64,000 nucleotides of DNA from Escherichia coli (GTDB taxonomy: Bacteria > Pseudomonadota > Gammaproteobacteria > Enterobacterales > Enterobacteriaceae): NCBI RefSeq assembly GCF_048403405.1, contig NZ_CP183129.1. One strand, 5' to 3'. Each line of letters begins with the position of its first letter. Position 1 is the first letter of the stretch. The position numbers and the translations under genes are program-made. Of this stretch, positions 24,624-27,629 are shown piece after piece. The notes beneath the pieces are model-generated. The model had not been told where the DNA came from. It saw only the letters and a program-made list of their open reading frames with translations, and made no database searches.

Positions 24624-25457
24624 GTCTCACATCAAATTTTTCCAATCTCCACTAATTGTTCCGTGCACATTTGCAGTAAAAACAGTGGACTGCCTTCTAC
24701 CGGCTTTTCTTTAGCCAGCAACGAAATCTGTCGATAGAAGGTTGGTTCGAGAGGAACGGAACACAATTCATCTGCAATGGTTTTCAGCGTTAACTCTGGT
24801 AATAAGGCGATGCCTAATCCCTGTCGAATAAAACTGATCGCTGTATCCGGGTGATTAAATTCATATTTTATCTGTGGGGTAATATTCTTTTCTTTAAATA
24901 GTGCCATAATGCTTAATTCATAGCGTCCTTTACTAATAATTAATGGTTCACCCATTAACTCTTCCACTGTAATAGTGCTGTTTTTTGCCAGAGCATGGTT
25001 GGGCGGTAACACTACGGTGAATTTATCCTGATAAATGGGCACGGAGTACATTCCGCTCACCGGAAAATGAACAAAACCGGCATCAATGGATTCATTCTGA
25101 AGGGAATCAATAATCGCTGTGCTATTTTCCTCAAAAGGAATAATTTTTATATTCGGATGATGAATTTCAAAGTAGCGAATCACAGCCGGTAAGATACAGG
25201 CGCAGACGCTGGGGAAACAACCAAGTCTCAGCGTTCTTTGAGGGTTCTGCTTTTCCTGCTCGGCTATCTCTTTTACTGCGTTCACTTCCCGATTAATGGC
25301 GCGCAGATGATGCACAATGCGATGACCTGCTGCGGTCAGTTGTATAGCTTTACGGCGATCGCGTAACAGTATACTCACGCCAAGTTCTTGTTCGAGGGCA
25401 GCAATTGCCTGACTTACCGCCGACTGCGTCATGAACAATCGCTTGCTGGCTTCAGTA

Positions 25458-25466
25458 AAGCCACCG
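25458..25466. repeat. IS1 target-site duplication, left copy (AAGCCACCG)
   Basis: Identical 9-mer directly flanks both IS1 termini. Confidence 0.8.
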
Positions 25467-25481
25467 GGTAATGACTCCAAC

Positions 25482-25985
25482 TTATTGATAGTGTTTTATG
25501 TTCAGATAATGCCCGATGACTTTGTCATGCAGCTCCACCGATTTTGAGAACGACAGCGACTTCCGTCCCAGCCGTGCCAGGTGCTGCCTCAGATTCAGGT
25601 TATGCCGCTCAATTCGCTGCGTATATCGCTTGCTGATTACGTGCAGCTTTCCCTTCAGGCGGGATTCATACAGCGGCCAGCCATCCGTCATCCATATCAC
25701 CACGTCAAAGGGTGACAGCAGGCTCATAAGACGCCCCAGCGTCGCCATAGTGCGTTCACCGAATACGTGCGCAACAACCGTCTTCCGGAGCCTGTCATAC
25801 GCGTAAAACAGCCAGCGCTGGCGCGATTTAGCCCCGACGTATCCCCACTGTTCGTCCATTTCCGCGCAGACGATGACGTCACTGCCCGGCTGTATGCGCG
25901 AGGTTACCGACTGCGGCCTGAGTTTTTTAAATGGCGGAAAATCGTGTTGAGGCCAACGCCCATAATGCGGGCGGTTGCCCGGCAT
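25482..25985 (-). CDS. insB: IS1 transposase InsB (expressed as InsAB' by -1 frameshift)
   Basis: 167-aa ORF matching remembered IS1 InsB. Confidence 0.85.
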
Positions 25986-26179
25986 CCAACGCCATTCATG
26001 GCCATATCAATGATTTTCTGGTGCGTACCGGGTTGAGAAGCGGTGTAAGTGAACTGCAGTTGCCATGTTTTACGGCAGTGAGAGCAGAGATAGCGCTGAT
26101 GTCCGGCGGTGCTTTTGCCGTTACGCACCACCCCGTCAGTAGCTGAACAGGAGGGACAGCTGATAGAAACAGAAGCCAC
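25904..26179 (-). CDS. insA: IS1 InsA (repressor / N-terminal part of transposase)
   Basis: 91-aa ORF with zinc-finger CPSCSA...CSHC matching remembered IS1 InsA. Confidence 0.85.
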
Positions 26180-26234
26180 TGGAGCACCTCAAAAACACCA
26201 TCATACACTAAATCAGTAAGTTGGCAGCATCACC

Positions 26235-26243
26235 AAGCCACCG
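26235..26243. repeat. IS1 target-site duplication, right copy (AAGCCACCG)
   Basis: Identical to 25458..25466. Confidence 0.8.
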
Positions 26244-26438
26244 TAATCCAGCACGGCGAGTAAAGAATTTATTTGAGTAAGAGTCATTAGAGTTTGCTAA
26301 TCAATAATATTAAAACGATTAATTTCTCTAATAGCGTGCCGCCATTTATACTTCTGTTCTGCAAAGTACATCACAATTTGACGCAACCGCAGTAACGGGA
26401 GTGTTGTCTGCGTGCGTCATCCTGACAGGCGGTAGGGT

Positions 26439-27629
26439 ATGAAAGAGAAGTTATGGACGAAGGATTTTTGGGCAATAACCATCATCAGCTTTATTATTTT
26501 CTTCGTCTTTTATGTTTTACTAACATTGTTGCCAATTTATATCTCAGACCGCTTGCATGCCTCTCCTGATAAAGCAGGTTTGTTGGTGACTTTATTTTTA
26601 ATTGCCGCCATTGTTATTCGCCCCTTTGCCGGGCAATGGGTAGGTAAATATTCGAATAAAACTATTCTGGGGCTCTCTTCTCTGGCCTTTTTGGTGGTCA
26701 CTGCGCTGTATCCTTTTTGCCACTCAATTGAATCACTGCTTTTTATTCGGGTGCTTCATGGTATTACCTTCGGGGTTATCACTACGGTAAAAGGAACGAT
26801 TTCCGCGCGGCTGATCCCGGCCTCCCGACGTGGGGAGGGCATCAGTTTTTTCTCTCTGGCAATGGGGCTGGCAATGGTGGTCGGGCCGTGGATTGGTCTG
26901 AATATGGCGCGCTGGGAAGCCTTTAATCTGGCTTTCTGGCTATGCACCGGCGTGGCAGCGGTGGGGATTATTCTGTCGCTGATTATGACAGTGCCGCCGG
27001 TTATCAGCCATGCTGATGGTTCAACGCCGAAAATGGGCTTCGCCGCCATGTTCGATCGCGCGGCGTTGCCATTTGCGATGGTCACCTTTTTTATGACCTT
27101 TTCGTATGCCGGGGTTTCTGCTTTTCTGGCGCTTTATGCACGCGAACTTAACCTGATGTCGGCAGCCAGTAATTTCCTGCTTTGCTACGCTATCTTCCTG
27201 ATGATCTGCCGTACCTTTACCGGCAATGTCTGCGACAAAAAAGGACCGAAATATGTGGTTTACCCTTGCCTTGTGTTCTTTACGGTAGGACTGGTGGTTC
27301 TCGGCTACACCCAGGGAAGCATAATGATGGTTGTTTCTGGCGCATTGATTGGTATCGGGTATGGTTCCGTGACGCCAGTTTTTCAGACGCAGATTATCAG
27401 TTCAGTGGAACCGCATAAAATCGGTGTCGCAAACTCCCTCTTCTTCAATGCGATGGATGCAGGCCTGGCGCTGGGAGCCTGTGTGATGGGGATGATGGTT
27501 GCACATACTGGCTACCGAATGATTTATCTGCTGGGTGCACTATTAGTGGTAGTGGCTGGTGGAGTCTATGCGCTGCAAATGAAGGGTAAAAGCGGTGTTG
27601 CGCTAGTAGTGGCAAAAGAAATTCATTAA
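26439..27629 (+). CDS. MFS-family transporter, substrate unknown
   Basis: 396-aa ORF with about 12 predicted TM segments; divergent from the LysR-type gene. Confidence 0.75.
   Translation: MKEKLWTKDFWAITIISFIIFFVFYVLLTLLPIYISDRLHASPDKAGLLVTLFLIAAIVIRPFAGQWVGKYSNKTILGLSSLAFLVVTALYPFCHSIESLLFIRVLHGITFGVITTVKGTISARLIPASRRGEGISFFSLAMGLAMVVGPWIGLNMARWEAFNLAFWLCTGVAAVGIILSLIMTVPPVISHADGSTPKMGFAAMFDRAALPFAMVTFFMTFSYAGVSAFLALYARELNLMSAASNFLLCYAIFLMICRTFTGNVCDKKGPKYVVYPCLVFFTVGLVVLGYTQGSIMMVVSGALIGIGYGSVTPVFQTQIISSVEPHKIGVANSLFFNAMDAGLALGACVMGMMVAHTGYRMIYLLGALLVVVAGGVYALQMKGKSGVALVVAKEIH

Follow-up and report, generated by a model that had tools for sequence, protein, structure and literature searches.

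The interval between glpQ and inaA in this Escherichia coli strain probably carries an ancestral module made up of a LysR-type transcriptional regulator (LTTR) gene and a divergent gene for a DHA1-like exporter, a module that has been lost repeatedly in the species and whose regulator is almost certainly null here through insertion of IS1. By its sequence and gene order, the locus is O-island 97 (OI-97; z3494 for the MFS transporter, z3495 for the LysR-type regulator) of EHEC O157:H7 EDL933, which is already named and studied. It is quite probable that OI-97 represents such an ancestral regulator-exporter module, inactivated again and again in E. coli, rather than an acquired virulence island. 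The locus is thus real and variable, but ordinary and previously described.

Organization of the locus

The window, that is the whole stretch of 64,000 nucleotides analysed, contains the following features in and beside the LysR-MFS pair:

24598-24625, unstranded: GC-rich hairpin with a 12-bp stem in the glpQ/LysR gap (folding)
24632-25466, minus strand: distal part of the LysR-type regulator gene, from codon 18 through the stop codon (nucleotides 54-879), together with the 9 duplicated bp (ORF)
25458-25466, unstranded: left copy of the 9-bp IS1 target-site duplication, AAGCCACCG
25467-26234, minus strand: IS1 (IS1B-like), 768 bp, with insA and insB' frames reading away from the MFS gene
26235-26243, unstranded: right copy of the 9-bp duplication, AAGCCACCG, perfect
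26235-26287, minus strand: 5' end of the LysR-type regulator gene, orphaned by IS1 and comprising codons 1-17 and 2 further nt, MTLTQINSLLAVLDYGG
26288-26438: LysR-MFS intergenic control region, 151 bp
26439-27629, plus strand: intact MFS transporter gene, 396 aa, WP_000660217.1 (ORF)

A reading made from the sequence only had described a full-length but IS1-disrupted LysR gene and a divergent 396-aa MFS gene between glpQ and inaA, and all of these are found where it placed them. When IS1 and one copy of the duplication are removed, the remaining sequence shows 0 mismatches over 2343 bp against strain TUM14771, whose LysR gene is intact (879 nt, 292 aa) and encodes both the HTH_1 and the LysR_substrate domains. 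GC content across the locus ranges from 0.39 to 0.55, which is ordinary, and has no sharp break. A scan of positions 24500-27800 against Rfam returned a chance-level match only (Yar_1, E=0.62) and leaves a riboswitch or sRNA unsupported in this interval. The glpQ and LysR genes are convergent and separated by a gap of 41 bp. The hairpin in this gap (fold energy -22.5 kcal/mol, z = -5.1 against shuffles) is probably a transcription terminator shared by the two genes and working in both directions; it was missed by a simple terminator scan because it has no T-run.

The inserted element has the attributes expected of IS1: a length of about 768 bp, terminal inverted repeats (matching at 18 of 23 positions), the insA and insB' frames (insA/insB ORFs at 25482-26179, minus strand) and a target duplication of 9 bp. 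The identical sequence in strain MS 69-1 is labelled in RefSeq as 'IS1-like element IS1B family transposase'. Insertion occurred after nucleotide 53 of the LysR gene, in codon 18 and 52 bp inside the gene, and it splits the HTH_1 domain after residue 17. The start codon (26285-26287) and the first helix of the winged HTH, encoded by codons 1-17, are in this way cut off from the rest of the gene, and for this reason the regulator is almost certainly null in this strain. The truncated ORF restarts at the edge of IS1 and would encode 282-285 aa; a partly active product from it is formally conceivable, and this counts against the preferred explanation. The same IS1 allele is present in MS 69-1, TUM1226, strain 4621 and OX030728.

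The regulator and its proposed operator

The reconstructed regulator has the two domains that define an LTTR: an N-terminal winged HTH (Pfam HTH_1, residues 3-63, E=2.6e-18, 66.2 bits with the cutoff at 26.6) and a C-terminal, co-inducer binding domain (Pfam LysR_substrate, residues 88-267, E=5.1e-37, 127.7 bits with the cutoff at 28). Also in keeping with an LTTR are the divergent neighbouring gene and the presence of a dyad with a T-N11-A box inside the 151-bp intergenic region. Three elements of a candidate control region were located:

26286-26301, unstranded: dyad 1, ATTAG-N6-CTAAT, which adjoins or overlaps the start codon of LysR (cross-genus alignment)
26318-26332, unstranded: dyad 2, ATTA-N7-TAAT, containing a T-N11-A LysR-type box (cross-genus alignment)
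26347-26352, plus strand: candidate -10 hexamer of the MFS promoter, TATACT (alignment reading)

The arms of the dyads are invariant and their spacers variable in six independent rows from four genera, namely three E. coli alleles (E. coli, O157 and O145) together with Salmonella, Klebsiella and Kluyvera; the rows beyond these six in the 15-row operator alignment were retrieved by the motif itself, so that their agreement is circular. The dyad 1 motif occurs a single time in the window. For dyad 2, GATTAATTTNNCTAAT has 1 occurrence in the window against 0.03 expected. A search across the window for further copies of the dyads, which would mark trans targets, found none.

In the LTTR paradigm, a recognition site lies near -65 and an activation site near -35, with a T-N11-A box. 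It is proposed that dyad 1, with its centre about -65 relative to the predicted start of MFS transcription, is the LTTR recognition site and that dyad 2, centred at about -34, is the activation site; this placement hangs on a -10 hexamer read from the alignment, not on a mapped transcription start. At the same alignment position, Klebsiella and Kluyvera have TATAAT or TATTAT. The promoter scan found no consensus sigma-70 promoter in the intergenic region, and the candidate MFS promoter has no good -35, as would be expected of an activator-dependent promoter. The sole sigma-70-like site within 26150-26460 is the inward promoter of IS1, at 26227-26200.

The arrangement resembles that of other LTTR/MFS efflux pairs in its divergent genes, in the combination of HTH_1 and LysR_substrate domains and in its two dyads, the centres of which lie 31.5 bp apart. 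It also resembles the LTTR paradigm in that the T-N11-A box overlaps position -35 in a promoter that has no consensus hexamer there. However, it departs from the paradigm in dyad 1, whose even spacing (ATTAG-N6-CTAAT) is not strictly T-N11-A. DNA binding, response to an inducer and regulation are predictions for this pair.

Relationship to O-island 97 and the role of the regulator

The primer arms published for z3494, z3495 and OI-97 align at 26285-26325, 26399-26438 and 27523-27562 with 0-1 mismatch. Both genes are orthologues of those in O157; compared with strain PA20, the LysR gene is 98.2% identical in nucleotides and 98.0% in amino acids, and the MFS gene 95.5% and 98.7%, respectively. 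As in OI-97, inaA-yfaE-nrdB come after the divergent LysR and MFS genes, and OI-97 has its boundary exactly where the K-12 deletion junction lies, at 27523. The O157 regulator is intact, whereas the one studied here is interrupted by IS1. Moreover, O157 has an AT-rich orphan gene of 356 aa between glpQ and the LysR gene which is absent from the window; in the strains that carry it, this orphan shows only a sub-threshold Pfam match (DUF6585) and no NCBIfam match. The sequence-only reading recognised neither O-island 97 (z3494/z3495) nor the published study of its regulator. Literature searched under STM2280, STM2281 and yfaH gave nothing informative.

In EHEC, Z3495 is reported to activate LEE genes, acting by way of rcsF (Wang et al. 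2024, Microorganisms 12:140, PMC10819331). Deletion of z3495 lowers adherence, LEE expression and mouse colonisation, deletion of z3494 has no phenotype in any of the three, and binding of Z3495 to the rcsF promoter was observed by EMSA and by ChIP-qPCR (PMC10819331). These observations favour a regulator whose main role is global and exerted in trans, from rcsF through Rcs to LEE, with the adjacent transporter as an unrelated or minor target. Such a role deserves serious consideration but is, on balance, unlikely to be the main one. The divergent arrangement and the operator have been kept in genera without LEE, which argues that the conserved function is local. In addition, the ChIP enrichment at rcsF was modest (3.5-fold) and was obtained with an overexpressed, tagged protein (PMC10819331). 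On the other hand, the same study describes 97 ChIP peaks and the trans target rcsF but is silent on regulation of z3494, which counts against the proposed local role; LEE and rcsF were the only promoters it tested. The ChIP table of that study lists glpQ at about 2.351 Mb, the position of glpTQ in MG1655. The ChIP coordinates look K-12-like, and the regulator's own locus may consequently not be assessable in them. The local and trans roles of the regulator are not mutually exclusive.

The MFS transporter

The 396-aa protein had already been read as an MFS transporter, and this identity is borne out by Pfam (MFS_1, residues 14-336, E=1.6e-58), while its NCBIfam subfamily matches are all far under their cutoffs. 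A crude hydropathy scan shows six clear peaks in the N-terminal half and five to six in the C-terminal half which, together with the Pfam match, agrees with an MFS_1 fold of about 12 transmembrane helices. The best NCBIfam match, NF003477, reaches 109.6 bits where the cutoff is 374, and NF009048 scores 84.7 against 364. The protein therefore falls outside both of these YfcJ/YhhS subfamilies, although no relatives are closer in sequence than these and NorA, a DHA1 pump. On these resemblances it is best classed as DHA1-like and distantly YfcJ/YhhS-like. The Z3494 protein has been given an 'MFS_YfcJ' domain call (PMC10819331).

The similarity to NorA is confined to the N-terminal half of the protein (E=6.5e-13) and includes the Gly-Pro of antiporter motif C in TM5: AMGLAMVVGPWIGL of the query aligns to INSGFILGPGIGGF of NorA, with the NorA motif-C GP aligned to VGPWIG. 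The upstream glycine spacing of the query motif departs from the textbook motif, and the first motif-A-like loop (GQWVGKYSNK) is degenerate. Values of dN/dS of 0.05-0.08 for the MFS gene against Salmonella, Klebsiella and Kluyvera indicate purifying selection.

The export direction and the substrate are read from a weak family resemblance that lies far below every NCBIfam subfamily cutoff. Genes for uptake and catabolism are commonly activated by LTTRs. MFS_1 includes symporters, and the weaker NCBIfam matches include aromatic-acid, galactonate, sialate, lactate and MhpT symporters. The protein could thus be a nutrient importer (an H+ symporter), with the LysR protein as a substrate-responsive activator of uptake. 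This seems improbable, however, as the top-scoring NCBIfam neighbours are exporters (YfcJ/YhhS-type, CntE, EmrB, Cmx and MxcK) and so are NorA and the sugar efflux pump SotB, the only relatives by sequence in the PDB; the TM5 Gly-Pro is of the antiporter type; and in none of the examined genera does a catabolic enzyme gene lie beside the pair. An exporter remains the preferred reading.

Repeated loss within E. coli

The distribution of the pair was followed in 5426 complete E. coli genomes. The full MFS gene with the intergenic region is present in 1226 (about 23% with the pair) and a near-full LysR gene in 1117. A probe for the K-12 deletion junction matched in 3120 genomes (about 57%), and the shorter LF82/B2-type interval, which reflects a larger deletion, was found in 1057 (about 19%). 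The K-12 deletion corresponds to the following stretch:

24879-27522, unstranded: stretch absent from K-12-type genomes, about 1.87 kb without IS1 (BLAST against MG1655, and junctions)

The junction of this deletion lies within the microhomology TTTATCTG. In K-12, the glpQ-inaA interval holds only the pseudogene yfaH (b2238), formed by the final 247 nt of the LysR gene; of the MFS gene, the terminal 107 nt also remain. K-12 has lost about the first 210 LysR codons, the control region and the MFS gene except for these 107 nt, whereas the locus studied here is complete and carries IS1 in addition. The yfaH remnant corresponds to the C-terminal 68 codons of the LysR gene (NF007272 matches residues 226-292, E=1e-42) and its DNA is 94% identical to the locus over 289 bp. 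The B2-type deletion allele (LF82/HH97) also retains 3' remnants of the pair.

Insertion sequences have interrupted the pair on other occasions. Strain PI7 has IS1 elsewhere in the LysR gene, ES11 has ISKox3 in the MFS gene, and 2017.06.04CC has IS5 in the LysR gene and IS1 in the MFS gene. The module has thus been lost repeatedly in E. coli, by two independent and different deletions, which account for about 77% of genomes, and by at least four independent IS insertions. The IS1397 of NRZ14408-type genomes was considered as a further disruption of the pair and rejected, since it sits between inaA and yfaE.

That the locus is strain-variable and that K-12 has only a remnant, both suggested by the sequence-only reading, are confirmed by these counts and by the MG1655 interval. 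An intact pair in K-12 and in most strains would have spoken for ordinary core content; comparison of the glpQ-inaA interval across E. coli revealed no such distribution.

Ancestry of the pair

In Salmonella, Klebsiella and Kluyvera the divergent pair lies in synteny with yfaE-nrdB, and it is also syntenic in Citrobacter species, in K. spallanzanii and in a cryptic Escherichia clade (Escherichia sp. MOD1). The gene lengths, 396 and 292 codons, are identical between genera. The term 'cassette', which had been applied to the locus and implies accessory or acquired DNA, is not appropriate, since the same pair lies at the same place in other genera and both deletion alleles keep remnants. For these same reasons, the variation within E. 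coli is attributed to loss, and the pair is to be read as an ancestral enterobacterial module.

This reading differs from that of Wang et al. (2024), who called the regulator laterally acquired and inferred independent acquisition from its occurrence in two separate clades (PMC10819331). Independent entry of a laterally acquired island or cassette into some E. coli lineages would also account for the patchy distribution of the pair (about 23% of E. coli genomes). Moreover, the locus diverges more than its flanks (pS between the window and O157 is 0.16 for the MFS gene, compared with 0.04 for inaA), and the O145 LysR allele is only 76% identical in nucleotides. The elevated allelic divergence and the O145 allele indicate that recombinational import does occur at the locus; a search for an O145 LysR donor among the retrieved genera found none closer than other E. 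coli alleles (about 84-85% amino-acid identity).

As an explanation of the origin of the pair, lateral acquisition is nevertheless very improbable. The pair-less genomes of the K-12 and B2/HH97 types keep 3' remnants that are correctly placed and oriented, the same chromosomal slot is occupied in five other genera or clades, and the K-12 junction is that of a microhomology-mediated deletion. No integrase, tRNA or flanking repeats were found at the locus, where the secondary IS1 is the only mobility gene. Outgroup synteny, remnants in the 'empty' alleles and ordinary GC are not the features of a horizontally acquired island.

Probable consequences of the IS1 insertion

The transporter gene and all of the cis elements are intact in this strain. 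IS1 had been thought to sit in the shared, divergent promoter-proximal region; in fact it lies inside the LysR ORF, and the region 26288-26438 with its dyads is untouched. Any effect of the insertion on the transporter would be exerted mainly via loss of the regulator. It is scarcely to be expected that IS1 itself alters MFS expression, whether by breaking the shared promoter or by providing an outward or hybrid promoter that would make the MFS gene constitutive: the element ends 204 bp before the MFS start codon, IS1 ends are able to form hybrid promoters, and in the direction of the MFS gene its end and flank give TTGGCA-17 nt-TAATCC, but it lies outside the 151-bp intergenic region and leaves both dyads and the candidate -10 unbroken, its transposase genes point away from the MFS gene, the promoter scan found its own inward promoter and no outward-facing consensus site, and TAATCC, as a putative hybrid -10, agrees with the consensus at only 2 of 6 positions.

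In the proposed working of the intact module, the LTTR would bind both conserved dyads, at about -65 and about -34 of a weak MFS promoter, and in doing so would repress its own gene. When it senses a small molecule, the LTTR would activate the MFS exporter gene, and the product, a predicted 12-helix drug/metabolite:H+ antiporter (DHA1-like), would pump out the sensed compound or a related one. With the regulator lost, the transporter of the present strain would stay at a basal, non-inducible level, and trans targets such as rcsF would lose the input of the regulator.

Biological significance

Taken alone, the finding matters little: this is a well-annotated LysR/MFS pair whose variability has already been catalogued, as yfaH in K-12 and as O-island 97. 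Natural knock-outs carrying the IS1 allele and the isogenic-like, intact TUM14771 (0/2343 differences) do, however, constitute ready-made strain pairs.

The evidence for ancestral presence and repeated loss contradicts the published lateral acquisition of OI-97/Z3495. If OI-97 is an ancestral module, its recurrent inactivation suggests that in most of the niches of E. coli it may be dispensable or carry a cost, and the IS1 allele described here would be one more, recent case of this recurrent loss. EHEC would then have co-opted the regulator of the module for LEE control, and the role of 'virulence regulator' would read as the co-option of an old, local regulator.

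Organisation of the interval between glpQ and inaA

Three elements occupy the interval between the glpQ stop at 24590 and the inaA start at 27710: a LysR-type regulator gene, the IS1 copy that splits it, and a divergent MFS transporter gene. The glpQ-LysR gap is 41 bp (24591-24631).

Features of the glpQ-inaA interval in the window
24632-25466, minus strand: LysR-type regulator gene, distal piece
25467-26234: IS1, 768 bp, between the two regulator pieces; imperfect terminal inverted repeats (18/23) and a perfect 9-bp target duplication, AAGCCACCG
26235-26287, minus strand: LysR-type regulator gene, 53-nt 5' fragment with the start codon at 26285-26287
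26288-26438: 151-bp LysR-MFS intergenic region, untouched by IS1
26439-27629, plus strand: MFS transporter gene, an intact ORF of 396 codons

In silico removal of IS1 and one copy of the duplication gives a sequence identical at 2343/2343 positions to the IS1-free allele of strain TUM14771, whose regulator gene runs for 879 nt without a break and encodes a 292-aa protein with HTH_1 and LysR_substrate domains. The sequence-only reading had therefore described and located the pair correctly. Its placement of IS1 in the shared promoter-proximal region was inaccurate, since the element entered after nt 53 of the regulator gene, in codon 18 and thus within the coding sequence, the intergenic region is intact, and a promoter scan located a single sigma-70-like site nearby, the inward promoter of IS1 itself. 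The start of the regulator gene is 52 bp away from the insertion and the MFS start codon 204 bp away; the element falls between helices one and two of the winged HTH, and its transposase frames point away from the MFS gene. Any effect on the transporter is thus likely to be indirect, via loss of the regulator. The 285-aa LysR ORF of the RefSeq annotation, which restarts at the IS1 edge without the first helix, is most likely non-functional.

Allelic variation among E. coli strains

In MG1655 (K-12), only the pseudogene yfaH lies between inaA and glpQ; the YfaH model of NCBIfam covers residues 226-292 of the intact regulator. Alignment reveals that K-12 keeps 247 nt of the LysR 3' end and 107 nt of the MFS 3' end, which meet at the microhomology TTTATCTG, equivalent to a deletion of ~1.87 kb.

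Alleles among 5426 complete E. coli genomes
Full MFS gene and control region: 1226/5426
Near-full LysR gene: 1117/5426
K-12 deletion junction: 3120/5426
202-bp LF82-type interval: 1057/5426

The 202-bp interval retains a diverged stretch of the MFS 3' end (~60 nt), of which BLAST aligns just the last 19 nt in LF82, and a related form in HH97 additionally retains 28 nt from the LysR 3' end. The intact pair occurs in strains including O157:H7, O55:H7, O145, IAI39 and ST2747. The exact IS1 allele of the window is present in five genomes, as a single-piece match in MS 69-1, TUM1226, strain 4621 and OX030728 and as a two-piece match in UID2309220009. Other disruptions arose independently: IS1 at another site of the LysR gene in PI7, ISKox3 within the MFS gene in ES11, and IS5 within the LysR gene together with IS1 within the MFS gene in 2017.06.04CC. 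These deletion alleles and independent disruptions bear out the earlier suspicion that the locus is strain-variable.

Insertions are also found in neighbouring sequence and in a remnant: ISKpn26 (IS5-like) in the MFS remnant of a K-12-type allele in O104:H4 (1501-2851 of the retrieved locus), and IS1397 between inaA and yfaE in NRZ14408-type strains (4162-5510 of the NRZ14408 locus). IS elements appear to have targeted the glpQ-yfaE interval repeatedly.

In some E. coli an additional AT-rich segment, ~1.7 kb long with a GC of ~0.32, separates glpQ from the LysR gene or its remnant (locus coordinates: GZM7 2359-4067; PI7 1512-2582; N2250 1767-3614; O157:H7 PA20 1-202); it is absent from the window, with its 41-bp gap. 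Its product, an orphan protein of 356 aa (WP_001301786.1 in O157:H7), matches nothing in NCBIfam, and its only Pfam hit, DUF6585 (E=0.009), is below threshold. The presence of the segment alongside the intact pair in O157 as well as the K-12-type deletion in GZM7 marks it as an independent and probably acquired insertion at the same hotspot.

Ancestry of the pair and recombination

Orthologues of the MFS protein with ~85% amino-acid identity are found in Salmonella enterica, the Klebsiella oxytoca group and Kluyvera. In Salmonella, Klebsiella and Kluyvera the MFS gene diverges from a LysR gene encoding 292 aa, with yfaE-nrdB-nrdA next in line. When one genome per species was scanned for the conserved operator pattern, 14 contigs matched: six from Citrobacter (C. 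werkmanii, C. youngae, C. portucalensis and unnamed species), the others from Kluyvera, K. spallanzanii, S. enterica subsp. diarizonae, a cryptic Escherichia clade and an unclassified Enterobacteriaceae isolate, plus a short E. coli-like contig labelled Collinsella. All those long enough to include flanks share this neighbourhood of yfaE-nrdB-nrdA and the divergent pair. Both gene lengths are constant across genera, dN/dS of the MFS gene is 0.05-0.08, pN/pS of the LysR gene is ~0.16-0.31 with synonymous sites saturated, and GC content is unremarkable. The locus has neither an integrase nor a tRNA, and it lacks border repeats. This comparison of synteny, gene length, selection and composition, and the remnants left in both deletion alleles, indicate an ancestral module with repeated losses rather than an acquired one.

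The Collinsella-labelled contig (JAIJJM010000334.1, 'MAG: Collinsella sp.', 3.5 kb) carries a LysR-MFS-glpQ region with 98-100% amino-acid identity to E. coli, and is almost certainly an E. coli contig mis-binned in an actinobacterial metagenome-assembled genome. Klebsiella and Kluyvera are without glpT-glpQ at the locus, and their LysR gene adjoins glpA. Only in Escherichia (E. coli and Escherichia sp. MOD1) does the inaA gene (window 27630-28360 compared) intervene between the MFS gene and yfaE; the MFS gene directly adjoins yfaE in Salmonella, Citrobacter, Klebsiella and Kluyvera. inaA appears to be an Escherichia-specific addition.

Despite this ancestry, recombination does shape the locus. 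In O145 RM12522-C8, where positions 1666-3899 of the retrieved locus are equivalent to window 24632-27629, the LysR gene has only 76% nucleotide and 84% amino-acid identity to the window allele (pS 0.72), whereas the adjoining genes show the similarity usual for E. coli, 93% for the MFS gene and 98-99% for inaA and nrdB. No closer donor of this LysR allele was found among the retrieved genera, and it looks like a recombinational replacement from an unsampled Escherichia-like lineage. An MFS-plus-intergenic probe places 47 genomes at 80-90% identity.

Control region and possible function

Cross-genus alignment, in which six rows were obtained without use of the motif and the remaining ones through the motif itself, reveals four conserved elements.

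Conserved elements of the control region
26286-26301: dyad ATTAG-N6-CTAAT, with invariant arms and a variable spacer
26318-26332: dyad ATTA-N7-TAAT, including a T-N11-A LysR box
26347-26352: -10-like hexamer TATACT/TATAAT/TATTAT
Downstream of the hexamer: conserved block ATCACA...ACGCA

If transcription starts ~7 nt past the hexamer, the dyads are centred at ~-65 and ~-34, the textbook geometry of the recognition and activation sites of LysR-type regulators. The promoter scan found no consensus promoter in the control region, which is typical of activator-dependent promoters. The MFS protein has YfcJ/YhhS-type, CntE and EmrB neighbours in NCBIfam and NorA and SotB as sequence relatives in the PDB, and possesses the TM5 Gly-Pro of antiporter motif C. 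It scores far under all NCBIfam subfamily cutoffs and so belongs to none of the subfamilies compared; its nearest relatives by sequence are exporters. Operator geometry, the lack of a consensus promoter and these relatives suggest that the regulator may sense a substrate, autoregulate its own gene and activate a DHA1-like efflux pump, with regulation, inducer, substrate and transport direction all putative. In the present strain, with a null regulator and an intact pump gene, the pump would probably be stuck at basal expression.

Relationship to O-island 97

A literature search with O157 locus tags identified the pair as O-island 97 (OI-97) of EDL933, a 2006-bp region comprising z3494 (MFS, 'MFS_YfcJ' domain) and z3495 (LysR) (Wang et al. 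2024, PMC10819331). Primer homology arms from that study match window 26285-26325, 26399-26438 and 27523-27562 with 0-1 mismatch, the last sitting exactly at the K-12 deletion boundary. Deletion of z3495 reduced LEE expression, adherence and mouse colonisation, deletion of z3494 had no effect, and Z3495 bound the rcsF promoter (PMC10819331). The lateral acquisition of OI-97 inferred there disagrees with the comparative data presented here.

Several Z3495 ChIP-seq peaks (glpQ, glpA, glpB; PMC10819331) lie directly beside the z3495 locus. The coordinates in Supplementary Table S4 (glpQ at ~2,351,168, glpA at ~2,352,683) look K-12-like rather than those of EDL933 when compared with MG1655 2344000-2354000. 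If reads were mapped to such a reference, binding of Z3495 at its own OI-97 control region would be invisible.

The locus is real, strain-variable and ordinary, and was on record before, under the name yfaH in K-12 and as OI-97 in O157:H7. To this the analysis adds a corrected IS1 position, an allele census and evidence for OI-97 as an ancestral module in recurrent loss and not an acquired island.
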